A stretch of DNA of 46,014 bases from Patescibacteria group bacterium (GTDB lineage: Bacteria; Patescibacteriota; Gracilibacteria; UBA1369; UBA12463). A program made the position numbers and the translations under genes. Positions 438 to 46,014 of the stretch are shown here, piece by piece (the first letter of the stretch is position 1; each line of letters begins with the position of its first letter). Below the pieces are notes generated by a model. It was not told the origin of the DNA, ran no database searches, and saw nothing but the letters and a program-made list of their open reading frames with translations. The stretch covers positions 1 to 46,014 of the forward strand of contig JBBTWG010000025.1 of assembly GCA_038062935.1 (NCBI GenBank). The letters are read 5' to 3'.

Positions 438-472
438 GATCCTACATCCTAAATCCTAAATCCTACGCCCTA
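438..472 (+). repeat. Tandem G-free heptamer array (gATCCTA cATCCTA aATCCTA aATCCTA cgCCCTA) directly upstream of the purN coding sequence
   Basis: Read directly from the sequence. It has 4 good units and 1 degenerate 7-nt unit. The same unit occurs upstream of rpsR, ssb and atpA on the other strand. Confidence 0.8.
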
Positions 473-530
473 CCGCATCGCCATCCTCGCTTCCACCCGC
501 GGCACAGACCTACAGGCCATCATCGACGAA

Positions 531-1052
531 ATGAAGGCTGGAAAAATGCCCGGCGTCGAACTCACCGTGGTTATTTCAAACAAAAAAGATTGTTATGCAA
601 TCCAACGTGCCCGCGAGCAGGGATTCAAAGCTATTTTTATCGATCCAGCAGAAAAAACAAAAGAAGCTTTTGACGAAGAAATGAGAGAAATTCTCGACCA
701 AGAAAAAGTTGATCTCATTGTCCTCGTAGGCTACATGCGCATCCTCACGACACCTTTCGTACGACACTTCAAAAATCGCATCATCAACATCCATCCCGCA
801 CTCCTTCCAAAATTCGGCGGGAAAGATTTTTTTGGCATCAGCGTGCACAAAGCCGTCCTCGCCTCCGGCGACACCGAGACAGGCATGACAATCCATTTCG
901 TCGACGAAGGCATCGACACCGGAAAAATAATTCTCCAAAAAAAAATTACTATCGCACCAGGAGAAACACCAGAATCTCTGAAAGAAAAAGTCTTGGAACT
1001 TGAAAAAAAATATTATCCAGAAGTTATCTACCAACTTTCAAAATCTTTATGA
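531..1052 (+). CDS. purN: Phosphoribosylglycinamide formyltransferase (PurN); the true start is probably upstream of the first ATG
   Basis: Family hallmarks are present: VVISNKKDCYAIQRAREQG, DLIVLVGYMRIL and INIHPALLPKFGG. The same frame upstream (474-530) encodes RIAILASTRGTDLQAIIDE, the conserved PurN N-terminal motif. No ATG, GTG or TTG lies between the in-frame TAA at 450 and the ATG at 531. Confidence 0.85.
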   Translation: MKAGKMPGVELTVVISNKKDCYAIQRAREQGFKAIFIDPAEKTKEAFDEEMREILDQEKVDLIVLVGYMRILTTPFVRHFKNRIINIHPALLPKFGGKDFFGISVHKAVLASGDTETGMTIHFVDEGIDTGKIILQKKITIAPGETPESLKEKVLELEKKYYPEVIYQLSKSL

Positions 1053-2333: not shown

Positions 2334-2383
2334 AAACCGAAGCCATAAAAGCTTTCAAAAATCAAAAAATAAAAATCAAAAAT

Positions 2384-5300
2384 ATGGATGTGCAAAATCC
2401 CGTTCCAACTCCGATCATAAATCCAGAAACTTCAGAGAAGAGGACGAAGATTCTAGGAATTTTTGTAGTTATCATTATTGCAGGTTTGGTGAGCTATTTT
2501 TTCTCACAATCAAGCCTTTTCCGGGGAACTTTTTTGACTCCAGGAAGTGAAGAAGAAGCTCAAGTCAAAGACACATTGAAAAGCATTGCCGACAACGCCG
2601 AGAGTGCTGAGTACGAAATGCATTATCAAAATAGTGTGGGCGATGAAAATCTCGATGGAGGGGGAAATATCGATCTCAAAATCACAGGAAAAGTAGATTT
2701 CACGGAAACTCCAGGAGTAGAAAAAAAATATCATATCGACATCACCGGAACAGGATCAGGGGTTGTAGTAAACGATACGAGTTGCCAAATTGCAAAGGTA
2801 GAATTCATGAAACCAGCAGGTTGGTATTACAAAAAAAGCACATCGACAATGCCACTGACACAAAGTTCAGGAGGTGATAATTTTGCTATAAAAGGCGAGG
2901 TTCTCTGCGGAAAAACTCCAACATTGAAAGCGATTATAGGGTTCAACGGAGGTGATCCATCAGAAAAAGAAGGCATACCTTTTGATCTGACAAAAAGTGT
3001 CGATGTTCCGGGAGTTTATGTTTTTAATCTGGAGAAAGCAAAAGAAGGTCTCAAGCAGGGATTATATAATTTCAAATTCGTATTAAGCACAGAAGGTTTT
3101 GAAACAACCAAGGAATACACGCTTGATATTCCAAAAGGCATTCCAGAAACGATGACACTGAAGTCTGTCATCACGGGACAGAACATAGAAATTACGGCAT
3201 CAAAAAATACTGATCATCCGGATGGCGAGTACACCTACGCCATCTACACATCAGCAACTCTCCCGGTCAAAACACCAGTAGAAACGCCAGCAGGAACTCT
3301 AACAAATGACAAATATACCGACACATTGGCAGACGGAAAGAGTCGGTATTACAAAGTCATCGGACTCGATAGCCAGAAAAATATTATTGCCACGAGTGAT
3401 TCGATTCTTGTACAGCCAGAAGGCACTTGCATAATTTCAAAAATAGAATATATCAATTCTCCAAATTTCGTGTACCAGAGTGCATCAACACTGCCGCTCA
3501 GTCCTCAGGAAGCCGAAAAGGCGTCAATCAAAGGAGAAGTAACATGTGATACAACAAAGGCAGCAGATCCAATCCTCAATGTGGTTGCAACATCAGCAAA
3601 GGATGGAGTGAGCCCAAAAATAAAAATTAATTTAAAAAAAGAAGCAGAAGGGAAATATTCTTTCCAGGAAAGTACGGAATCGGGGACAAAAGAAGAGCCA
3701 TTAAATCTCAATTTTATATTGAGTGCAGGAAATACAGACACAGAGCAGGCATATACATTGCATCTCAAAAAAGTCATTCCAAAAGAAATTACAACGTCTC
3801 ACTATGAAAAAACAGATGCCGGAATAAAATTGAGCTGGGCCTACAGCAGACCACTCAAGGAATTTCCAGGAAATGAAGGACTGTATAAAGTCTATAGAAG
3901 TGAAACCTCATTCAACCTGCCAGCAAAAGTCACAGGAGATTTCATAGATAAAATAGTCAGCACTGTAGTGGTAAAAGAACTCCCAAAAAACACAGAATTT
4001 GGAGAAACAACATGGACCGACACAGGGGCAACAGACAATTCAAAAAATTATCATTATTTTATCGCAGCATTTGAATACCTCAACTCGGAAAAAATAAAAC
4101 AGAGAGTCGTAGCGATATCAGATGAACTGTCAGGTACCAATAGCATAGAGCTGAGCACAGTCACAACCGAAGGAAATGTAAAACTCAGCTGGAAAGTTTC
4201 GAAAGATCCGTCTGTAGTTATAAAAAAATATACTATTTACAGGTCGACCGTACATTTGGCGCCGTTCATCAGCACTAATAAAATTGGAGAAGTATTGGCA
4301 GGGGGTAAGTTCGAATACAATGATGCCCTCGCAGAAGAAGATGTGTACTATCGTGTACTCGCCATCAATGAAGATGAGGAAAATCCTGTCATTGCAAGCA
4401 ATGAAGCTTATGTAAAATCATCACTCTTGCCAGGCACAAAAATAATTCCAAAAGAAATTACATCGTTCACAGGAACGAGAGTGGAAACCGGAGTAAATCT
4501 CCAGTGGACATATGGAAAACCAGCGGCAGAATTCCTCGGATATAAAATATATAGAAGTGAATCTCCATGGAATCTCAAAACAGAAGATATAGAAAAGTTT
4601 ATACAAGATCAGAAAGAAATAAAAAATCTTCTATCAACTGAAAAATCATGGGCAGATACAGGGGCAAGTGACAAGGAAAAAGATTATTATTACATGGTTA
4701 TTGCCTTTAATAGTAAATTCAAGCCAATTGGAATATCAGACGAACTGAAAGTAGAAAAAGGCCCATTCCCACAAACTATCGCTGCGAGCGCTACAACGAC
4801 GAAAGGAACAGTAAAAATTCAGTGGCCCGAAGATCCAGAAATAATGGCACGGACAGTCGCTTTGGATCTCACGATGATACCTGGCGGTACCATCTCTGTT
4901 TACAGCGAAAATCCTTCACAGCAGGAACAGATGGAGGTGCAGGATTATGTCCTCTACACAGCAGCATCGACACCAGTCTCAAAAGATCCAAATAAGAAAA
5001 TAGTAATAAAATGGCCAAGAGATCAAGTGCTAGATAATTATGGCGAAACATACTTTGAGCCAGTGGGGAATATTTGTAACAAATATTACGTGATATTTGC
5101 AGAAAGACCGGATGGAACAGTAGTCGCGCGTTCACCAGAAGTCGCAGCAAACTTCGGAACTTGTGCAAAACCAGTAGAAGAGCAACCTGCTCCGCAGATA
5201 TGGAAATATGAAATCCACAAATCGGCCATATCACCAGTTTCAGTAACAGGCGATCCTTGGGTCATAATAGATACCGGTTCATTGCCGATGTACTTGGATA

Positions 5301-16258: not shown

Positions 16259-17383
16259 TTACGTAAGAATGGAACGCAACTTTCCAGCCATCTCCGCCTC
16301 CGAAATTTCCTTCGCAATCCGTTCCCCATAACTCATCGAATCACCCCAAAGATAGCCGCTATACGGCGTAAAAGCGGTCCCCGGCGAACCTGGAATGCGC
16401 ATGCTCACATCGAACACAAAGAAATTTTCACGGCCATCATCTGTGTTAACCGCTCCCTGCAAGGCAAAAGGTCCAATCATTCCGGGTGGAACCTGGAGCT
16501 TCATAGTATTCACGAAATCTTCTCCAGCTCTAAAAAATTTTTCCAACAGTGATTCTTTCACCGTCACCGCGATGTGCCCCGTTTCGATACGAATTGCCTT
16601 CTGATGAGAAGCCGGGATGAGAGCCTGTTCCCATGCAGGAAGTCGTAGAATGCCATCTAGATTTGTTTGTCGTCGCATATCTGTTCCCATAATTTCCAAT
16701 TCACTGTTCATGACAGAGTAGAAATAATTCACATTCACCTGCGCTCCTAAAATATATTCTTCGATAGTTGCACTCTCCAAATCTCGACGATCAATTTCAC
16801 CAGCCTGGATGCGTCGTTCCGATTCAGCAACGTATTCATTATAATTGCTCGCAATAAAAAACGCGCGCTCATATTTCCGCGTCGCTTCATTCACTTTCAC
16901 AATCACCAGTCGATCAATATCACGCGGACTGGCAAAAATCTTCGGCATCCGAATCCCAGCCCGAGCCAAAATTTCATACTGATTTCCCGGCACATTTCTC
17001 TCCTCCAATTTCACCGCTTCACGAGTCCCATACATCGGCACCAGAAAATCATTTTCAATCTTTTCAAAATCGCAATACACCCAAAAATATCGATTGTGCA
17101 CGAAAATTACATTCTTCGCCCGTAACTGTTCCTGCAACCCCACGATATCCCCAAATTTTTCCACCACCAAAACTTCATCCACACATCCACGACCATCACG
17201 AGTCGCATAATACTGCGAATACGTCTTCTCGCGCCCTTTCTGCGCCACAACCAAAGTCCGAAACCCATATTTCTTCGCTCCCCGACACACATCCAGAGCA
17301 CTATGCCCCCCGAGGACCCCGATCGTTAATTTCGAAAGATCATACTTGGAAAGGACTTCGGCGAGCTGTTTTTGGGAGATCAT
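16259..17383 (-). CDS. purP: 5-formaminoimidazole-4-carboxamide ribonucleotide (FAICAR) synthetase, archaeal type (PurP), paralog 1
   Basis: MISQKQLAEVLSKYDLSKLTIGVLGGHSALDVCRGAKKYGFRTLVV...HNRYFWVY...PPGMIGPFALQ... matches the PurP ATP-grasp family layout. I placed the start at the internal ATG 17383 (family-typical MIS... N-terminus), not at the ORF-track ATG 17434, which would overlap the upstream gene. Confidence 0.85.
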   Translation of the reverse strand: MISQKQLAEVLSKYDLSKLTIGVLGGHSALDVCRGAKKYGFRTLVVAQKGREKTYSQYYATRDGRGCVDEVLVVEKFGDIVGLQEQLRAKNVIFVHNRYFWVYCDFEKIENDFLVPMYGTREAVKLEERNVPGNQYEILARAGIRMPKIFASPRDIDRLVIVKVNEATRKYERAFFIASNYNEYVAESERRIQAGEIDRRDLESATIEEYILGAQVNVNYFYSVMNSELEIMGTDMRRQTNLDGILRLPAWEQALIPASHQKAIRIETGHIAVTVKESLLEKFFRAGEDFVNTMKLQVPPGMIGPFALQGAVNTDDGRENFFVFDVSMRIPGSPGTAFTPYSGYLWGDSMSYGERIAKEISEAEMAGKLRSILT

Positions 17384-17405
17384 GGCGAGAGTATAGCAGA
17401 AAACC

Positions 17406-18182
17406 CTATTTCCGCTCAAACGTGCCAAACACATGACTCGTATTCTGCGCCGGATCGACGAGGTTCATCAAACTCGCAGACGACGTCCTCTTCCACAGCA
17501 CGAAGTGTCGCGCGCCCTGCGCTTCCATCAATTTCAAAGTCACGTACAAAGTTTCCGGTGAATCAAAAGCGACCGCATCATCGCCTTCATCAGATTTTCC
17601 AATCGCAATCGACTTTGCCAAACCCAGAATTTTTTCAAAATCCACCGACTCATTCGACTCCAACCACGCAATCGCCCGCGCATCATTCTCCAGCGCATCT
17701 TTTTCGCCAACATAATGCGTAAAATCCACACTTGCGAGCACGAGCGTCTGCACATCCACACGCGGTAAAAGTTCCTTCACCAACGCATCCAAATTTTCCT
17801 GCGGCGTCTGGGGTTTCAGAATAATCGGAAGAATTTCCGCATCAGAAAAATATTTTTTGATGAAAGGAATATGCACCATAATCCCATGCTCTTTCGGAAA
17901 ATATCGCGGTGACTCCGACATCTGAACATAGCGCAATCCATATCCAAAATGATTCGGACTCAATAAAATAATTTTTCGCACATCAGAAAACTCGCGCTGC
18001 AAGTGTTGATAAAATTCATCAATGAAACTTTCCACCAGCAGATGATGCGGCAACACCGCACCGCGCAGCAGCGTATTTTCACGCACGTTCGACATTGACC
18101 CACACGCCGTCAGCAGAAGCAGCAAACCGCCGCACAAAATATGCTTTAATATTGCCATGCGCTGGATGAAGTACCGCCCCAT
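17406..18182 (-). CDS. MEMO1/AmmeMemoRadiSam-B family protein with a lipoprotein signal peptide
   Basis: Memo-family motifs are present: GAVLPHH, ILLSPNHFG, EHGIMVHIPFIKKYF, ILPIIL and LVLASVDFTHY. The N-terminus MAILKHILCGGLLLLLTAC has a lipobox (LTAC). The alternative start at 18158 gives a cleaner signal peptide. Confidence 0.7.
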   Translation of the reverse strand: MGRYFIQRMAILKHILCGGLLLLLTACGSMSNVRENTLLRGAVLPHHLLVESFIDEFYQHLQREFSDVRKIILLSPNHFGYGLRYVQMSESPRYFPKEHGIMVHIPFIKKYFSDAEILPIILKPQTPQENLDALVKELLPRVDVQTLVLASVDFTHYVGEKDALENDARAIAWLESNESVDFEKILGLAKSIAIGKSDEGDDAVAFDSPETLYVTLKLMEAQGARHFVLWKRTSSASLMNLVDPAQNTSHVFGTFERK

Positions 18183-19910: not shown

Positions 19911-20969
19911 TCATCCCAGAATTTCCTCCAGTCGATCATCCTCGATCGCATGTTTCACTTCACGCGCGATCCTGCGACCCGTGCTCATCGGTTCGTTGTA
20001 GCGCAGCCACGTGTACGGCGAACCATTCACAAAAGGATTCGTCCCCGCCACGATGCGTGCTGAAATTTCAAATGTGAAGAAATTCAATTGTGGATCAATA
20101 ATTGTCTCCAGACAAAAAGGTCCAAAAATCCCGCGTTTGCCAACACCCTCCAGTTTTCGTGAAGTCTCCACCACGCGTCGACCCATCTGGAACAGTTGCG
20201 GCAAGAGCGATTCCCGGATCACCAGTGGCATATTTCCTGTAATCGTATAGCTCGTTTTGATATGCGCATCCATCTGATCGCGCGCTGCAATGCGCCCAAT
20301 CGAATCCGCATTCGACTCATATCGTTTGTCAAAACTCATAATTTCCAGTTCATCCGTCAGTGGTGAATAGAAGTAATGAATATACATCGGCACACCCACA
20401 ATATATTCCTGAAGCACATATTTTCGCTCCTCCATGGGATAATCCCGCACATGGTCATAAAATTCTTTTGGCGTATTGGCAATGAAGTATCCACTCCCAC
20501 CCATCGCGCCATGAAACTTCACAATCACTGGACGGTCAATATCTTCCGGTTTTTCCAGAACTTCCGGCTGGCGAAGACCGGCGAGAGCAAGCCATTCTCG
20601 CTGTTTAATCCGATCCGATTCCCAGGCGAGAATCGACCGCGTTCCGAAATGCATCATCGACACTTTCTGCACTTCTTTCGCACCGATGTAGCTCACAAAA
20701 CTTCCATGCGGAATCAAAACTGCATTCTGTTTTTTGAGCTCTTCTTCAACCGAAAAAAAGTCAGAAAATTTCTCCACTTCGAGGATCTGATCCGCCACCC
20801 GAAAACTCTCATAAGGCTCTTTCGTGCCTTTCGTACACACACAAATCGTTTTGAACCCCTCGTCCTTTGCTCCCTTCAGAATCTGAAGAGCCGTGTGGCT
20901 TCCAAGCGTCGCAATGGCGTAATCAGCAGGAGAACTCATGGGCAAAAGGTGAATATTTTCAGTGATCAT
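19911..20969 (-). CDS. purP: FAICAR synthetase, archaeal type (PurP), paralog 2
   Basis: YAIATLGSHTALQILKGAKDEGFKTICVCTKG...LIPHGSFVSY...VIVKFHGAMGGSGYFIA...MYIHYFYSPL...ITGNMPLVIRESLLPQ...GIFGPFCLE is a very close match to the canonical PurP motifs. Confidence 0.9.
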   Translation of the reverse strand: MITENIHLLPMSSPADYAIATLGSHTALQILKGAKDEGFKTICVCTKGTKEPYESFRVADQILEVEKFSDFFSVEEELKKQNAVLIPHGSFVSYIGAKEVQKVSMMHFGTRSILAWESDRIKQREWLALAGLRQPEVLEKPEDIDRPVIVKFHGAMGGSGYFIANTPKEFYDHVRDYPMEERKYVLQEYIVGVPMYIHYFYSPLTDELEIMSFDKRYESNADSIGRIAARDQMDAHIKTSYTITGNMPLVIRESLLPQLFQMGRRVVETSRKLEGVGKRGIFGPFCLETIIDPQLNFFTFEISARIVAGTNPFVNGSPYTWLRYNEPMSTGRRIAREVKHAIEDDRLEEILG

Positions 20970-26232: not shown

Positions 26233-26445
26233 CTACTTCACAAACGGCACCAGTGCCATATGTCTCGCACGTTTGATTGCCTGCGCGATCTTTTTCTGAT
26301 TCTGGAGATTTGCACCACTATAGTAGCGAGGCACAATACGTCCGTATTTCGAGATATATTTGGAGAGAAGTTGCAGATTTTTGTAGTCAATGTACTGAAC
26401 ACCGGCTTTAGAGATCTGACATTTACGATTTTGGTAGGTAGGCAT
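26233..26445 (-). CDS. rpsR: 30S ribosomal protein S18
   Basis: YIDYKNLQLLSKYISKYGRIVPRYYSGANLQNQKKIAQAIKRARHMALVPF is the S18 signature. The gene sits in the classical rpsF-ssb-rpsR arrangement. Confidence 0.95.
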   Translation of the reverse strand: MPTYQNRKCQISKAGVQYIDYKNLQLLSKYISKYGRIVPRYYSGANLQNQKKIAQAIKRARHMALVPFVK

Positions 26446-26450
26446 GCGTC

Positions 26451-26478
26451 GAGGATTTAGGATTTAGGATGTAGGAAG
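26451..26478 (-). repeat. Tandem heptamer array upstream of rpsR (coding-strand reading: cTTCCTA cATCCTA aATCCTA aATCCTC, then gacgc ATG)
   Basis: Read directly from the sequence. It has 4 units and ends 5 nt before the rpsR ATG. Confidence 0.8.
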
Positions 26479-26491
26479 TTACACGTCAATG

Positions 26492-26507
26492 GTCACATGT
26501 CACACGT
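26492..26507 (-). promoter_or_regulatory. Conserved 16-nt box ACGTGTGACATGTGAC (coding-strand reading) upstream of the rpsR heptamer array
   Basis: It is 15/16 identical to 45756-45771 upstream of atpA. A TTGACG -35-like hexamer (26484-26489) lies just downstream of it. Confidence 0.4.
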
Positions 26508-26510
26508 TTT

Positions 26511-26963
26511 TCACTGTATTTCCTCAGAAATAGCGTCGCCGAGGTCGAGTTCATCGAGAGGTGGTTCATCAGAAGATGGCTGGTTGCCGCCATCGCCATT
26601 CATCATATCGTCACCCATTTCACCTTGTGGACGTTTTTCGAGCATCACGACGTCTTGAGCCACGATTTCTGTTCGGAAACGCTTTCCCTGGCCATCTGGA
26701 GAATCCCAGCTGCGGGTTTTGAGATATCCTTCGATATAGACGAGTTTTCCTTTGCAGAGGTACTTTTGTGCAATCTCAGCCAATTTTGCCCAAGCCACGA
26801 CTTCGTGGAACTCTGTGGAAGAGTGTCTCTGTCCGTCGCGAGTGACCCAATCACGGTTTGTGGCAACGCCAAAAGTTGAAATAGGTTGACCACTCTGGGT
26901 CGTCTTCGAGACAGGATCGCGAGTTAAATTGCCGATGATGATAACTTTGTTAATGCTTCGCAT
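26511..26963 (-). CDS. ssb: Single-stranded DNA-binding protein
   Basis: The OB-fold N-terminus is MRSINKVIIIGNLTRDPVSKTTQSGQPISTFGVATNRDW...TEFHEVVAWAKLAEIA..YLCKGKLVYIEGYLKTRSW. The C-terminal tail is acidic and Gly-rich. Confidence 0.95.
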   Translation of the reverse strand: MRSINKVIIIGNLTRDPVSKTTQSGQPISTFGVATNRDWVTRDGQRHSSTEFHEVVAWAKLAEIAQKYLCKGKLVYIEGYLKTRSWDSPDGQGKRFRTEIVAQDVVMLEKRPQGEMGDDMMNGDGGNQPSSDEPPLDELDLGDAISEEIQ

Positions 26964-26964
26964 G

Positions 26965-27013
26965 GGAGGATAGAGGATTTAGGATGTAGGATTTAGATTT
27001 GGATGTCAGGATT
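26965..27013 (-). repeat. Seven-unit tandem heptamer array upstream of ssb (coding strand: AATCCTG ACATCCA AATCTAA ATCCTAC ATCCTAA ATCCTCT ATCCTCC, then c ATG)
   Basis: Read directly from the sequence. The three distal units overlap the last codons (NPDIQI) and the TAA stop of rpsF. Confidence 0.8.
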
Positions 27014-27565
27014 GTCCAAAAGACTGTCTAATTTCTTCTCTTCTGCTTTCAATTTTTCCTGCATCTCTGCCTCAGAAAGAGCTTTTTCTTTCTTCATTTC
27101 AGGAACAGGGAGCTCAGCAGGAGCCTCAGGTTTTTCTTTCATCGGAGGACGTCGGACTGGTGGTCTCTTCTTGTCTGCAGCATCAGCAGCTTTTTCTTGT
27201 TCAAATTTCAAACGAGCAGATTCGAGTTCTGCATCATACTCTTTCAAAGTCTTGAAAGTATAGCCACTTGGAACTTTGATCAAAAGATGACGAATAACGC
27301 CAGTTTCGATACGAACCGTCTTTTCAACAGTAGGCACTTTTGCTGGATCGTGTTCAAAGTGGAAAACAAAATAGCATCCACGGTTGTGTTTTCCGATACG
27401 GTAAGCCATATCGCGAATACCCGCGAGGTCTTCATGTAAAATCTTGCCGCCATCTTCTTTGATAGCAGTACGGATTTCATCGAGACGCGTCTTGAGCTGT
27501 TGGTCAGACAGATCCGGAGGGAGAATGACCATGAGCTCATACTGGAGAAGATCGAGATCTTGCAT
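26993..27565 (-). CDS. rpsF: 30S ribosomal protein S6 with a long Lys/Glu/Pro-rich C-terminal extension
   Basis: YELMVILPPDLSDQQLKTRLDEIRTAIKEDGGKILHEDLAGIRDMAYRIGKHNRGCYFVFHFE is the S6 core. It is followed by an approximately 90-aa charged tail. Confidence 0.9.
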   Translation of the reverse strand: MQDLDLLQYELMVILPPDLSDQQLKTRLDEIRTAIKEDGGKILHEDLAGIRDMAYRIGKHNRGCYFVFHFEHDPAKVPTVEKTVRIETGVIRHLLIKVPSGYTFKTLKEYDAELESARLKFEQEKAADAADKKRPPVRRPPMKEKPEAPAELPVPEMKKEKALSEAEMQEKLKAEEKKLDSLLDNPDIQI

Positions 27566-38986: not shown

Positions 38987-39046
38987 CCTCACCCATCTCG
39001 TCTCAGAAAAAACTTGACAAAAAACAAAAAGTATTGAATTATACCC

Positions 39047-42000
39047 ATGAAAGAAACTCAAAAACACACACAAATCAGAAAAGCAGCAGCGCAGATCGTA
39101 ACCCCTTTCTCGCTCATGCACAACACACAGCATCATCTCATGTTCTGTGATCTCGGAGCCTCCACAGCGGGGTCGCTCACCAGTCTCTACGGAAGGTCGG
39201 TTTTTTTCGCAGATAGCGGAAAAGCACAGACATCCGGAAATGATGATGTCACCAAAAAACTGTCATCCGAGCAGACAACGCATGATGATAAAAAGACAGG
39301 AACAAAGCTCGAGCAGCAGCTCGAAAAAAATAAAAAACGTTTCCATCCCACGACCTACAGCAAAGCACATGATGCCCTCAAGAGAGGAACATTCTACGAA
39401 GAAACACTCGTCGAACGTCTCATAGGAGGCACCATCACGAGCGAGCGTTTCGAAGAAATGGTGGAAAGACTCGGCAAAGAATTGAACGATCCCGAGAAAA
39501 ATCTCACAGAAATGGAGCTCACCGGCAAGATCAAATCCGGAACATATGATCAGGCAATTCAGTCGCTCCAGGAAGATGACGAAGCGTTCATCGAGCACAA
39601 AATGGCCGCGCGAGAACTTTCGAAAGGATTCATGAAAGAAAAAGAATTCCTCCTCTTGCTCAAGAAAAAACCACTCCCAAAAAAAGAGATAACGAGATTA
39701 AGTGCTCTCGAAACATACGGGAACGAAGCCATCGAAGTCGGCCGCGAAAGCACGCATCAACTCCTCGATGCGTACTCCACCAGCTACGAAGAATATTGCG
39801 ACGCAAAAGTCGACACACCAGAAATGGCTGAAGAGTACCAAAAAAACATGGAAAAGATGCGAGATGCAGCAGCAAGAAAGGATACTGTGGGAAGGCAGCT
39901 CGATGCTGTTTTGCACGAGGTGGCAGAAGGCGATCAGATACTCGAGAAAAAACTCTCCGATGCTCTTTTTAGTCTTCTCAAAGACGAAGAAAAAGTGACT
40001 ACAGCGCACATTCAAACAGCATTCCAAAAAGTCCGGGAAGGCAGCAAAAAGCAATTTCAAATTGATCCTCAGCAGGTTCAGCAGATTGAGGCACATTTTG
40101 AAAAAATCCAGAAAATCGGAGACGAATTTGCTGCAAAAAGCAAAGCAATGACCGATCATCTCGCACTCATTCAGAAAAAATCACTCGAAAAAGCAAGCGT
40201 CGACAAAGTCATCGCAGACGGTCAGAGAGCCACCGGCATCACACTCAAGCCCGGCACAAAGTTGAAATTCAAACAGAAGTATTACGACGAGGAAACTGGA
40301 AAGACGATCGAGAAAGACACTGAAACAGAAATCATCGGTATCTACGTCGACACATCCGCCAAAGAAAAAATCGAATGGAACGATCGCGAATTTCAGTCGG
40401 ATGAAATTCCACTCGTCGTCATGACCGGCCAAGGAGTGCCACTCACCATCACACGCCTCAAAAAATGGGTCGACGAATCCGGCGCACAGGAACAGATAGA
40501 AACCCAGCAGGAGCTCGAAAAAGAACTCGGCTTCAGCGTGAAGCCAGGGACACAATTGCAATTCAACACAGTAGTTCGAGAAACAGGAAAAATGCGAGCA
40601 GAAGAAGTTTCGAACACCGTCACAATTATGCCAGCACTCCAAGTACCAGGCGCAGAACCTCGCATCCAGCTCAACAAAAAAGTCACTCTCAGAACTCCAG
40701 AATCCGCCCCTCACGCTCGCCTCACGCAGCGCGTCGAGAAACAGAGCCTCACTTACGCCGAGTTTCTCATTTGGGCTAGAAATTATGAAGTAAGTCCAGA
40801 GCACACCAGCGTCGCAGAGCTCGCAAAAGCCGCAGAAATCGAATCCGGTTTGCACGAGAATCAAGTCCTGGTCTCCGGCGACGCCGCACGCTCGATGATG
40901 TGGCTCGTGAAAAAGATCGAACTTCCACAGCCATCAGGAAAAACAGGAAAAATCACACTCGGCAATGCACAGGGTGACATGACGCTGTCATTTGGAGAAT
41001 TCCTCCGCATGGCTCAGAAGCAAGGTCTCAGAAATTACGACGTGAAAGAAGAGGTCGATCAGCGCATGGCATCGCTCCAGGGCAGCGATGATTATTTCCC
41101 AGAATATGAACGCGAAACAAGAAACACAGCCAACAAAGTGGAAAAATTTACCGCACAAGCTTCGCGTGACGGAGCAGAAAAACAGCAGGAAAGTCAGGCA
41201 CTTCGGAAGGCAATTCAAAACGAACAAAGAATGGCCGCAGACAAAGGTGGGCACGGACCAACACTCCCTGTAGCCACCGCAGCACTCGAAACCGGTGCCG
41301 CCAACGACAACAAAGAACATCACGGCGAACACAAAGAACATGCCGGAGGAGCACACGCTGAAGGCGACCACCACCATGATAAAAAAGAAGGCGACGATCA
41401 CCATGACAAAAAACATGGCGACGATCACGGTAAAGGCGACGACCACGGCGGTGACGACCATGGAAAAGAAAAAAAACATGACGATCACGCCGGAGGGGAT
41501 GAGACCATGAAAGGTCTCAAAGACGTCGAAGTTCCAAAAGACGGAGCCATGAGAGCATTTTGGAGAAAGACAACATTCCTCCGAGGAGCGGATATCTGGG
41601 AGCTCGGAAAAGCCTGTTGGGAATACTACAAACGTTGGTACGAACGCGAATCCAAAGGTCGTTACGCCAATTACGGGAAAGATCTCCCGTACCTCATGAC
41701 GGAGATGTTGAAAGTCAAAGAAGACACCGAGCATCACGAAGTAGGACAGTTCAAAAGCGCCATGGTTAACATGGGTGTCGTCGAAATCCAACACATCATG
41801 CATCAGACCACCAATAAAGATCAGCTCAAAGCCTGTATCGAAGCACTCGTCGATAAAGGTCAGATGGACTGGAACGACATGCATTTTTGGCAGGCGCTCA
41901 ATCTCCACCTTCCCAACGACAAAAAAATTCGCTACGACAGCAATCACCTCGATCCCCACAAAGGTGTCTACGTCGATCCCACCACCGGCAAGAAATTGTC

Positions 42001-44199: not shown

Positions 44200-45702
44200 T
44201 TACTTCTTCAAAAAATACGCCTTGAAATCTCCAATCACTTTCTTCAATTCTGGCTCAATCTCCGGAGTAAAATCTTTTTTCTCACGAAGCTCGGTCATCA
44301 ATTTCGCCTGCGCATTTTTCAAATGTTCGAAGAATGCTCGTTGGAAATCCATCATGTCAGCCACAGGAATTTCATCGAGATAGCCGTTCACCGCAGCGTA
44401 CAAAATCGACACCTGTTGCTCGACTGGAGTTGGTTCGTATTGAGGTTGTTTCAAAACTTCCGTGATACGGGCACCGCGATCAAGTTGTTTTTTCGTATCA
44501 GCATCGAGATCGGTTCCGAACTGTGCAAACACCGCAAGTTCTCGATATTGAGCGAGATCCAGACGCATCTTGCCAGCCACTTTTTTCATGGCTTTGATCT
44601 GCGCGGCAGAACCCACGCGAGACACCGAGAGACCGACGTTGACCGCTGGTCGAATACCTTTGAAGAAGAGATCCGATTCCAGATAAATCTGTCCGTCTGT
44701 GATAGAAATAACGTTCGTCGGAATATACGCGGAAACATCGCCTGATTGCGTTTCGATAATCGGAAGCGCCGTCAGAGAACCTCCACCGTGCTGTTCATTC
44801 AAACACACAGCGCGTTCGAGGAGACGAGAGTGCAGATAAAAAATGTCTCCTGGATACGCTTCACGTCCTGGTGGACGTTTGAGAAGGAGGGAAATTTGGC
44901 GATATGCCCACGCCTGTTTCGAGAGATCGTCATAAATCACAAGGACGTCTTTTCCTTTGTCGACAAAATATTCACCGATCGCGCAACCGCTATACGGTGC
45001 GAGAAATTGGAGAGGAGCTGGATCAGAAGCACCTGCGAGAACCACCGTCGTGTATTCCATCGCGCCATGTTTCTCGAGCTCAGAAACGATCTTCGCGACT
45101 TTGGAAGCTTTCTGGCCAATAGCCACATAAATACAGATCAAATCCTGACCTTTTTGGTTGAGAATCGTATCAATCGCGATCGCTGTTTTTCCGGTCTGGC
45201 GGTCGCCGATGATGAGCTCACGTTGACCACGACCGATCGGAATCATCGCATCGATGGCGCGAATACCTGTTTGCATCGGACGGCTCACGCTCTTGCGAGT
45301 GATGACACCTGGAGCCACTTTTTCCACTGGATAAAATTCTGTCGCAGGAATTGCTCCTTTTCCATCAATCGGTTGTCCCAACGCATTCACCACACGACCA
45401 ATGATTTTTTCGCTCACTGGCACCGAGAGGATGCGCCCAGTCGACTTCACGGTGTCCCCCTCGTGAATGCCTTCTGTTTCTCCCAAAATAACCGCACCAA
45501 TCGTGTCTTCCTCCAGGTTCAGAGCCCATCCGAAAGTTCCATTCGGAAACTCCAGAACTTCAGAAGATTTGGCTTCTTTGAGCCCAGAAATCCTCGCAAT
45601 ACCGTCACCCACTTCCAGCACAGTTCCGACGTGCTCGGTGGTCGATTTCGCGCGAAAATCCTGAATATGTTTTTTGAAGAGAGAAATGGTGTCGGAAGAC
45701 AT
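44200..45702 (-). CDS. atpA: F0F1 ATP synthase subunit alpha
   Basis: [19 protein letters not shown] (P-loop), [44 protein letters not shown] and ITDGQIYL are present. I placed the start at ATG 45702 ([11 protein letters not shown]...). The ORF-track extension to 45753 translates the heptamer array. Confidence 0.95.
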
Positions 45703-45707
45703 GGGGG

Positions 45708-45735
45708 AAGGATTTAGGATGTAGGATTGAGGATA
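45708..45735 (-). repeat. Tandem heptamer array upstream of atpA (coding strand: TATCCTC AATCCTA CATCCTA AATCCTT, then ccccc ATG)
   Basis: Read directly from the sequence. It has 4 units and ends 5 nt before the atpA ATG. Confidence 0.8.
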
Positions 45736-45760
45736 TAGCCAGTCACAAGTCACTTGTCAA
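45732..45760 (-). promoter_or_regulatory. Internal promoter candidate for atpA (TTGACA-17 nt-TATATC), overlapping the 3' end of atpH
   Basis: On the minus strand, TTGACA is the complement of 45755-45760 and TATATC is the complement of 45732-45737. The spacer is exactly 17 nt. The predicted transcript leader would consist of the heptamer array. Confidence 0.4.
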
Positions 45761-46014
45761 ATGTCACACGTAGCCGCTGTAATTGTCCAGCCACAGTTGC
45801 GTCAAAATACAGATCACCAACTTTGAGTGCAATACCACCGCCGAGCGCGGGATTTTCTTTTTGCTGGAGCGAAATTTTTTTCTTCAGAGATTTTTCCAGA
45901 TCAGTCGTCAATTTCGTGAGTGCTGCTGCATCGAGCGTTTTTGCGACATACGCCGTGACCGAAACGATGCCGTTTTCTTTCTTCCAGAGTTCATCAGCAA
46001 TCATCAAAATACGA
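45750..46014 (-). CDS. atpH: F0F1 ATP synthase subunit delta (C-terminal part; 5' end lies outside the window)
   Basis: ...[65 protein letters not shown] matches the delta/OSCP C-terminal pattern (...GG....GD...D.S....L). It lies directly upstream of atpA. Confidence 0.85.

Follow-up and report, generated by a model that had tools for sequence, protein, structure and literature searches.

Tandem arrays of a 7-nt unit, (A/C)ATCCTA, end just before the starts of four housekeeping genes, rpsR, ssb, atpA and purN, in a 46,014-nt contig of a Patescibacteria group bacterium (JBBTWG010000025.1, assembly GCA_038062935.1), and at rpsR and atpA the array is the second half of a larger element that begins with TGAC-type heptamers. 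The contig at its full length is referred to here as the window. How ribosomes find internal starts without Shine-Dalgarno pairing is only partly understood in many bacteria, and the arrays lie on the sense strand of a genome in which Shine-Dalgarno motifs are rare. From their sequence, position and distribution we infer, with about even confidence, that the arrays are repeats born of slippage and kept as unstructured, Shine-Dalgarno-free landing spacers for ribosomes.

Heptamer arrays end at the starts of four housekeeping genes

The arrays at the four genes, which a preliminary description of this DNA had reported, were recovered in agreement by reading of the sequence, by Tandem Repeats Finder and by a pattern search (Table 1). 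Tandem Repeats Finder returned a period of 7 at all four sites with 3.6-5.9 copies, and one exact 18-mer, TCCTACATCCTAAATCCT, is common to all four arrays. With up to 2 mismatches allowed, the two-unit pattern ATCCTAMATCCT matched the window 17 times against 6.7 expected, a number reached by 0 of 100 shuffles, and all 11 matches with 0 or 1 mismatch fall within the four arrays. Each array lies on the sense strand with a gap of 1-6 nt to the downstream start. In the frame used by the preliminary description the rpsR array is 26451-26478 and ends 5 nt 5′ of the ATG. The three 5′ units of the ssb array are made of the last rpsF codons and the stop (TAA, 26995-26993, within the third unit), and the purN array spans the interval from the stop of the serine dehydratase alpha gene (TAG, 435-437) to the conserved PurN N-terminus. 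The arrays had been described as containing no G, which is true of the core units; one G lies in the stretch of the ssb array that belongs to the rpsF coding sequence, and others at the edges of the purN array. GGAG, GAGG and AGGA are all absent from the four leaders. The weak single copies reported earlier, AAATCCT before a purP paralog and AAATTCT before atpG, were both found.

The arrays are identical across independent assemblies from several samples, the purN array in four of them, and an assembly artefact was therefore ruled out. In the portion of the genome examined (~60 kb), heptamer arrays are dispersed as five ATCCTAN sets, all in spacers between co-directional genes, and two of the five extend into the last codons of the upstream gene. 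No ATCCTAN array occurs in the divergent intergenic DNA of the window (~750 nt), no array on the AGGA strand in the ~60 kb, and no further array in the contig that extends the window 8.4 kb leftward.

Table 1. Positions of the heptamer arrays, their G-containing halves and the genes concerned. Unit sequences are read 5′ to 3′ on the strand given.
Feature	Position	Strand	Sequence or context	Identified by
rpsR array	26450..26477	-	TTCCTAC ATCCTAA ATCCTAA ATCCTCG, then ACGC, then ATG 26445-26443	sequence reading, pattern search, Tandem Repeats Finder
ssb array	26964..27013	-	7 units: AATCCTG ACATCCA AATCTAA ATCCTAC ATCCTAA ATCCTCT ATCCTCC, then C, then ATG 26963-26961	
atpA array	45707..45734	-	ATCCTCA ATCCTAC ATCCTAA ATCCTTC, then CCCC, then ATG 45702-45700	
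purN array	438..472	+	five heptamers: G ATCCTAC ATCCTAA ATCCTAA ATCCTAC GCCCTAC	
G-containing half before rpsR	26478..26505	-	GTGTGAC ATGTGAC CATTGAC GTGTAAC; begins 5 nt after ssb stop TGA 26513-26511	
G-containing half before atpA	45735..45769	-	GTGTGAC ATTTGAC AAGTGAC TTGTGAC TGGCTAT	
rpsR (ribosomal protein S18)	26233..26445	-	cistron downstream of array	Pfam
ssb	26511..26963	-	downstream of one array, upstream of next	stored Pfam hits
atpA	44200..45702	-	cistron downstream of array	stored Pfam hits
purN	474..1052	+		comparison with solved structures
(TCAAAAA)x4, other G-free heptamer array	2355..2383	+	ends at ATG 2384 of 2379-aa SLH-domain protein	

Three arrays are half of a two-part composite

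The preliminary description missed an array of four NNNTGAC units in register with the G-free array at rpsR and atpA. The G-free arrays at rpsR, atpA and an atpZ-like ORF form the 3′ half of a dispersed composite of ~60 nt, in which four NNNTGAC heptamers are followed by four or five ATCCTAN heptamers in a single 7-nt register. The third composite, which contributes the fifth array, lies on a public contig running 6 kb past the window end, between atpC and atpB, where it precedes a small ATPase_gene1 (atpZ/atpI-like) ORF. The three composites align without gaps over ~60 columns with 82% column identity, while the ssb and purN arrays have no TGAC half. At atpA the G-containing half overlaps the last atpH codons and the stop (TGA, 45752-45750). 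The composites have a fixed polarity, with the G-containing units stop-proximal and the G-free units start-proximal, which is the same rule as that seen for the arrays of other phyla (below). A two-part composite in one register is an architecture without earlier description.

Two further observations concern the G-containing units. Most consist of a start codon followed by a stop (GTG-TGA, ATG-TGA, TTG-TGA, GTG-TAA) and recur every 7 nt, so that they occupy all three frames (26478-26505, 45742-45769 and L201 3579-3606); the pattern may be incidental, because a relative with 88% SSB identity has AGCTTNN units instead. At a groundwater Bacteroidetes locus (L012, ~4680-4760), the successive units of one array shift from the TGAC to the TCCT type (AATGACC ATTGACT AATGCCC AAGTCCC AAGTCCT AAATCCT), which suggests that the two flavours could be linked via stepwise mutation inside one array.

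The arrays lie in leaders predicted to be unstructured, in a lineage with few Shine-Dalgarno motifs

The window DNA comes from Hainich aquifer (groundwater) metagenomes. Its ORFs are intact under the standard code, and the named homologues of its SSB at 62-66% identity carry the labels Peregrinibacteria, Gracilibacteria or Patescibacteria, from which we infer that the host is probably a Peregrinibacteria-like bacterium of the candidate phyla radiation. When scored at -20 to -4, a Shine-Dalgarno-like motif precedes 1 of 29 window genes and, among relatives with SSB at least 54% identical, 4 of 188, compared to 79 of 195 genes in more distant bacteria from the same search. The frequency of G before starts is 0.03-0.17 across most of -20 to -1. 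The rarity of Shine-Dalgarno motifs together with this depletion of G indicates that G-poor leaders are the rule in the clade, and the arrays are one way to build such a leader. Bacteroidota, cyanobacteria and plastids likewise have unstructured, Shine-Dalgarno-independent leaders that are A- or pyrimidine-rich and G-poor around the start. The window clade shares that leader composition, but the leaders of those groups are not periodic, whereas here the leader is a 7-nt repeat. The leaders of the clade (window and L121-L160) also frequently have T at -1, and several starts in the window and its close relatives have a run of C in front (CCC ATG).

These counts agree with the earlier statement that the arrays are not Shine-Dalgarno sequences, and identity with a Shine-Dalgarno site was rejected for the arrays, which are pyrimidine- and A-rich with core units free of G. 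In minimum-free-energy folds the arrays are unpaired, with leader z-scores of -0.8 to +1.2, no better than those of shuffles. A structured riboregulator was accordingly rejected, since the folds of the four leaders were no better than those of shuffled controls; an Rfam 15 scan of the whole window at the gathering score gave no match. Since the arrays are in sense orientation before starts, are predicted to be unpaired and belong to a genome essentially without Shine-Dalgarno motifs, an unstructured, Shine-Dalgarno-independent leader, which is one part of the first of three options that had been offered for them, is the most reasonable reading.

AAATCCT arrays follow a strand and position rule in other phyla

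A scan for TCCTAMATCCTAMATCCT in one genome per species (596 Gb) returned at least 116 loci, compared to ~70 chance 18-mer matches expected by our own arithmetic under uniform composition. The bacterial results below, here and in later sections, refer to the matches listed. Because 105 of 123 arrays reach beyond the seed, these are true arrays. They come from Planctomycetota, Bacteroidota, Acidobacteriota, Verrucomicrobiota, Cyanobacteria, Chloroflexota, Patescibacteria, Peregrinibacteria, Betaproteobacteria and others. Arrays with an ORF start in the 10 nt 3′ of them number 22 for the TCCTAAA strand and 2 for the opposite strand; over 60 nt the numbers are 35 and 12, respectively. In co-directional spacers, sense arrays (n = 28) lie at a median of 8.5 nt from the ATG and 44 nt from the stop, and antisense arrays (n = 17) at a median of 4 nt from the stop and 59 nt from the ATG, a difference in distance to the ATG with P = 0.0008 (Mann-Whitney). 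Of the arrays with an inverted copy, 25 have the AGGA arm 5′ of the TCCT arm and 0 have it 3′. The genes directly downstream of arrays elsewhere include rplP, rpsS, rpsK, rplT, rpsG, atpC and nrdR, and TGAC-type and TCCT-type heptamers co-occur in other phyla as well. At Nostoc loci, TGACAAA arrays end 2-14 nt 5′ of two ATGs of the S10 operon, whose ORFs are by eye rplP and rplV, and an AAATCCT array stands in front of rpsS.

In viral contigs, the exact three-unit seed of AAATCCT was found at 27 loci, and the composition-matched seeds of AAATCTC and AAACTCT at 61 and 33. That AAATCCT is no commoner than its controls, in what is a viral and not a bacterial comparison, speaks against a universal partner that recognises this sequence, an rRNA segment for example. 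A literature search for the AAATCCT unit with its rotations and complements returned no relevant paper.

The kind of element persists among close relatives as its sequence turns over

The spacer between rpsF and ssb was followed through relatives of decreasing SSB identity. At 95% identity it holds four ATCCTAN units in differing variants, and at 88% another composite, of five AGCTTNN-type and ~6 TCC-type units, with a similar composite after ssb. At 84% the spacer is plain and T-rich with no array. At 80%, one lineage has TCCTTTA TTCCTAA CTTCTCC TTTCTCC and a second has ACTATCC TCTAACC TACATCC TAACTCC following a long hairpin, and at 74% or below the spacer is short, A-rich and G-free. TCC-type heptamers thus precede ssb, in differing sequences, in 5 of 6 sampled lineages with SSB at least 80% identical. 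Among 37 metagenomic relatives with 54-74% SSB identity, ~34 have no array in the orthologous spacer, the exceptions (L139, L141 and L145) having some other repeat-like sequence, and 650 kb of sequence from relatives at or below 74% SSB identity contain 0-1 TCCT-type arrays. Most relatives at 80% SSB identity and above therefore carry TCC-type units in the orthologous spacer, and arrays are essentially missing from more distant relatives. This series indicates that the kind of element persists at the ssb junction down to ~80% SSB identity, that it is quick to change in sequence, copy number and 5′ partner, and that it can be lost. The overall distribution is sporadic, the element being absent in near relatives and the AAATCCT unit present in unrelated phyla.

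Copy number at the strain level was compared between two strains. The second strain, 98.7% identical, has equal copy number at two arrays and a few substitutions at the array edges. The 7-nt unit had also been called prone to slippage; copy number is the same in these two strains, but the arrays turn over quickly at 80-95% SSB identity. Phase variation was rejected on the housekeeping type of the genes and on this equal copy number; the units are also imperfect.

The same pair of strains differs at 34 positions in a 2.5-kb alignment, and 13 of these, all synonymous, lie within the last ~12 rpsF codons (27002-27035), with the window version of the last seven codons the more array-like (GAC AAT CCT GAC ATC CAA ATC TAA). 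The cluster resembles a tract of recombination or conversion at the edge of the array. At the next junction, the ssb-rpsR spacer of the relative with 95% SSB identity (L203 570-696) has no TGAC/TCCT composite and holds an unrelated element of ~110 nt with TTCGAAAT-like repeats, an inverted repeat TTCTAAACAA ... TTGTTTAGAA and the end CCCCCCCC ATG.

The arrays are of a known kind in a new lineage

In marine Beggiatoaceae, MacGregor (2015) described 169 sets of 2-6 direct repeats of TAACTGA, mostly forward and a few nucleotides from start codons in spacers without ribosome-binding sites, some of them in ribosomal protein operons; one close relative has none, the repeats also occur in some Cyanobacteria and Bacteroidetes, and a translational role was proposed, with S1, Csp or CsrA as candidate binders (PMC4679880). 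The window arrays resemble these sets in their 7-nt unit, few copies per set, forward orientation, nearness to the start and absence of a Shine-Dalgarno motif, and also in forming several sets per genome, ribosomal protein operons included, with near relatives that have none. They differ in the unit, here (A/C)ATCCTA plus NNNTGAC, which makes them the same kind of repeat from another sequence family. They differ as well in the host, a Patescibacteria-like groundwater bacterium, and in that 3 of the 5 arrays are half of a two-flavour composite.

Contiguous heptamer repeats of Nostoc are reported in a preprint to lie near start codons or promoters, and to affect reporter expression and the expression of recF and recO (10.1101/2022.06.06.494920). 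Like these and the STRRs of cyanobacteria, the window arrays are tandem, dispersed, intergenic and often beside start codons. Unlike them, the window arrays have no inverted partner, whereas cyanobacterial arrays often carry an inverted copy forming a hairpin, comprise many unit types and are far longer. We take the TGAC-type half to resemble STRR2 (TGACCAA) of cyanobacteria. The phase-variable AGAT repeats in the 5′-untranslated region of Moraxella uspA2, to the extent that they are summarised in PMC4679880, are similar in being tandem repeats 5′ of a start codon whose copy number could tune expression. On the basis of that summary, the window arrays differ from them in their housekeeping genes, imperfect units, equal copy number in two strains and absence of a surface or virulence link.

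The window arrays have every defining feature of start-proximal heptamer repeats but the unit sequence, and place such repeats in a new lineage. The view that they are a lineage-specific kind of element has to be given up, as start-abutting heptamers have been published (PMC4679880; 10.1101/2022.06.06.494920) and AAATCCT arrays occur in many phyla. A lineage resembling the candidate phyla radiation is now added to the Beggiatoaceae and cyanobacteria as bearers of heptamer repeats. Also added are a rule of strand and position across phyla, by which start codons adjoin the G-free strand and stop codons the AGGA strand, the two-part composite in one 7-nt register, and a series of relatives in which the kind persists and the sequence turns over.

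Proposed ribosome landing spacers and the alternative explanations

We propose that the arrays are a family of heptanucleotide simple-sequence repeats specific to the lineage, alike in kind to the cyanobacterial STRRs and the Beggiatoaceae TAACTGA repeats, and that in the housekeeping operons rpsF-ssb-rpsR, atp and sdaA-purN they have colonised short spacers between co-directional genes. They would be transcribed within polycistronic mRNA, since one array holds the rpsF stop and one composite the atpH stop. As the (A/C)AUCCUA half is nearly G-free and has no self-pairing, it would leave ~30 nt of RNA open up to a point 1-6 nt from the AUG. This open RNA would let 30S subunits load, or post-termination ribosomes re-initiate at the next AUG; that open RNA would be needed where Shine-Dalgarno pairing is lacking follows from the established Shine-Dalgarno-independent initiation of Bacteroidota, cyanobacteria and plastids. 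The arrays also put UAA or UGA in all three frames. They would arise and change via slippage and copying between loci, with selection allowing only the G-poor strand beside a start codon. If the arrays promote initiation, they are simple, portable, Shine-Dalgarno-free translation spacers, and if not, they are a clean example of leader constraints filtering selfish repeats.

Several points weigh against retention as landing spacers. Most window genes are array-free, and the relative with 84% SSB identity has a plain spacer, so the arrays are dispensable. The G-containing TGAC half and the 82% column identity of the composites exceed what open RNA alone explains. In other phyla, 54 of 99 arrays away from locus ends have no start nearby, the set was chosen by the search pattern, and the gene calls in the foreign loci come from simple ORF heuristics (ATG-led, at least 80 codons).

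Much of the same evidence is open to another explanation, in which the arrays are selfish or neutral, microsatellite-like expansions without benefit that persist only at sites and in orientations where they are harmless. We regard this as possible, if rather unlikely. Slippage-prone heptamers would seed and spread, with the G-poor strand remaining by starts and the AGGA strand kept away. Such expansions would be expected to be sporadic, as the arrays are, with virtually none in the 650 kb from relatives at or below 74% SSB identity, and to undergo the fast turnover, replacement and loss seen among closer relatives. The control heptamers, as common as AAATCCT or commoner in viral contigs, and the cross-phylum arrays, over half of which are not beside a start, fit this as well, as does the finding of Mrazek (2007), as it is summarised in PMC4679880, that heptanucleotide units are the commonest class of long simple-sequence repeats and are phylogenetically scattered. 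Neutral expansion sits less well with the placement of all five ATCCTAN arrays 1-6 nt before a start and none in the ~750 nt of divergent intergenic DNA, with the kind of element kept at the ssb spacer to ~80% SSB identity, or with three composites that retain register and architecture. The neutral explanation and retention as landing spacers overlap and differ only on benefit, and the present data separate them poorly.

It is doubtful that the arrays are a sequence-specific RNA or DNA binding platform for a lineage-encoded co-regulator of the downstream genes. The candidates would be a chain of cold-shock-domain proteins (~7 nt each), ribosomal protein S1 or a small RNA with AGGAUUU repeats. 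The exact 18-mer common to four arrays and the three ~60-nt composites, with 82% column identity in a fixed 7-nt register, would suit such a platform. CspB of B. subtilis binds a pyrimidine-rich heptanucleotide consensus (PMC1904285), S1, Csp and CsrA have been proposed for the TAACTGA repeats (PMC4679880), and the Nostoc heptamers are reported to affect recF and recO expression (10.1101/2022.06.06.494920). On the other side, no candidate factor was found in our analysis, and the ~60 kb contain no AGGA-strand array able to encode a pairing small RNA. The unit sequence also shifts among close relatives while the position is kept, which argues against a fixed recognition sequence. In a further possibility the 7-nt period itself would be read, the arrays being a periodic loading platform for a protein that binds single-stranded RNA with a footprint of ~7 nt (cold-shock domain or S1 OB-fold). 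Such a protein might prevent the spacer from closing and pass ribosomes on to internal cistrons as a general, cross-phylum alternative to Shine-Dalgarno pairing, with the G-containing, stop-proximal NTG-TGA half capturing or releasing ribosomes; we consider this no less doubtful.

That the composite is an internal promoter, with the TTGAC heptamers as -35 and TAAAT/TATAT as -10 elements giving short-leader or leaderless rpsR, atpA and atpZ mRNAs, is very improbable. By eye, TTGACG-17-TAAATC (rpsR), TTGACT-17-TAATTC (atpZ) and TTGACA-17-TATATC (atpA) can be picked out, and at least one window gene looks leaderless, with a consensus promoter ending 4 nt before its ATG. A sigma-70 scan nevertheless found no promoter at any composite. 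It required TTGACA- and TATAAT-like hexamers spaced by 16-18 nt, the second of them carrying A at position 2 and T at position 6, and it is this T that each candidate -10 lacks. The same scan detected good promoters elsewhere in the window, of the canonical TTGACA/TATAAT form. A TGAC half is missing from the ssb and purN arrays, one array runs into a coding end within a classic operon, and in other phyla AAATCCT arrays sit between ribosomal protein genes.

Least credible of all is pairing with rRNA as a substitute for the Shine-Dalgarno interaction, with either a changed 3′ tail of the 16S rRNA or the AGGAUU in the region of the helix 24 (790) loop as partner. AAUCCU is complementary to the AGGAUU in the conserved 16S segment AGGAUUAGAUACCC, and the AAATCCT unit recurs in many phyla, but the G residues of AGGAUU lie in a stem, the unit is neither privileged over controls nor conserved among close relatives, and Shine-Dalgarno-less sister lineages have no arrays. 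No 16S 3′ end was found in the retrieved loci. The earlier suggestion of an unusual rRNA partner is thus undercut by a wider G-poor, Shine-Dalgarno-less clade without arrays and by controls at least as common in viral contigs.

Genes and other features of the window

Pfam identified S18 and serine dehydratase alpha, and stored Pfam hits identified SSB, S6 and the ATP synthase subunits. The start of purN is unusual. From the in-frame stop (TAA, 450-452) to the conserved RIAILAS no ATG, GTG or TTG occurs, and CGC ATC GCC, encoding the conserved R-I-A, directly follows the array. Since CGC ATC (474-479) parallels the CGC ATG before rpsR, the AUC at 477-479 is a candidate purN start. The alignment with solved PurN structures begins at residue 7-9 of the open frame, and four assemblies of different samples agree exactly in the sequence of the start region. 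In public gene calls a later ATG shortens purN to 168 aa, and an exact-sequence look-up of the 173-aa PurN gave no match.

Upstream of the (TCAAAAA)x4 array lies a consensus promoter, TTGAAA-16-TATAAT (2306-2333), with an upstream TG, giving a leader of ~50 nt of which the last 29 nt are the repeat. This array indicates that G-free heptamer leaders in the genome are not confined to one unit. A second consensus promoter, TTGACA-17-AATTAT (39014-39049), ends 4 nt 5′ of the ATG of a 1407-aa ORF, which suggests that the mRNA of this ORF may have no leader or almost none; shuffles of the region yielded no site.

A search of the window for tRNA and tmRNA genes returned none. The ATP synthase genes (L201 1778-8431) are in the order atpD-atpC-(atpZ-like)-atpB-atpE-atpF-atpH-atpA-atpG, which is unusual in having beta and epsilon first. 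Two archaeal-type PurP paralogs (DUF1246/DUF1297; 16259-17434 and 19911-20969) flank a Memo-family gene near purH and purN, and the purine pathway is unusually complete for a genome resembling those of the candidate phyla radiation.

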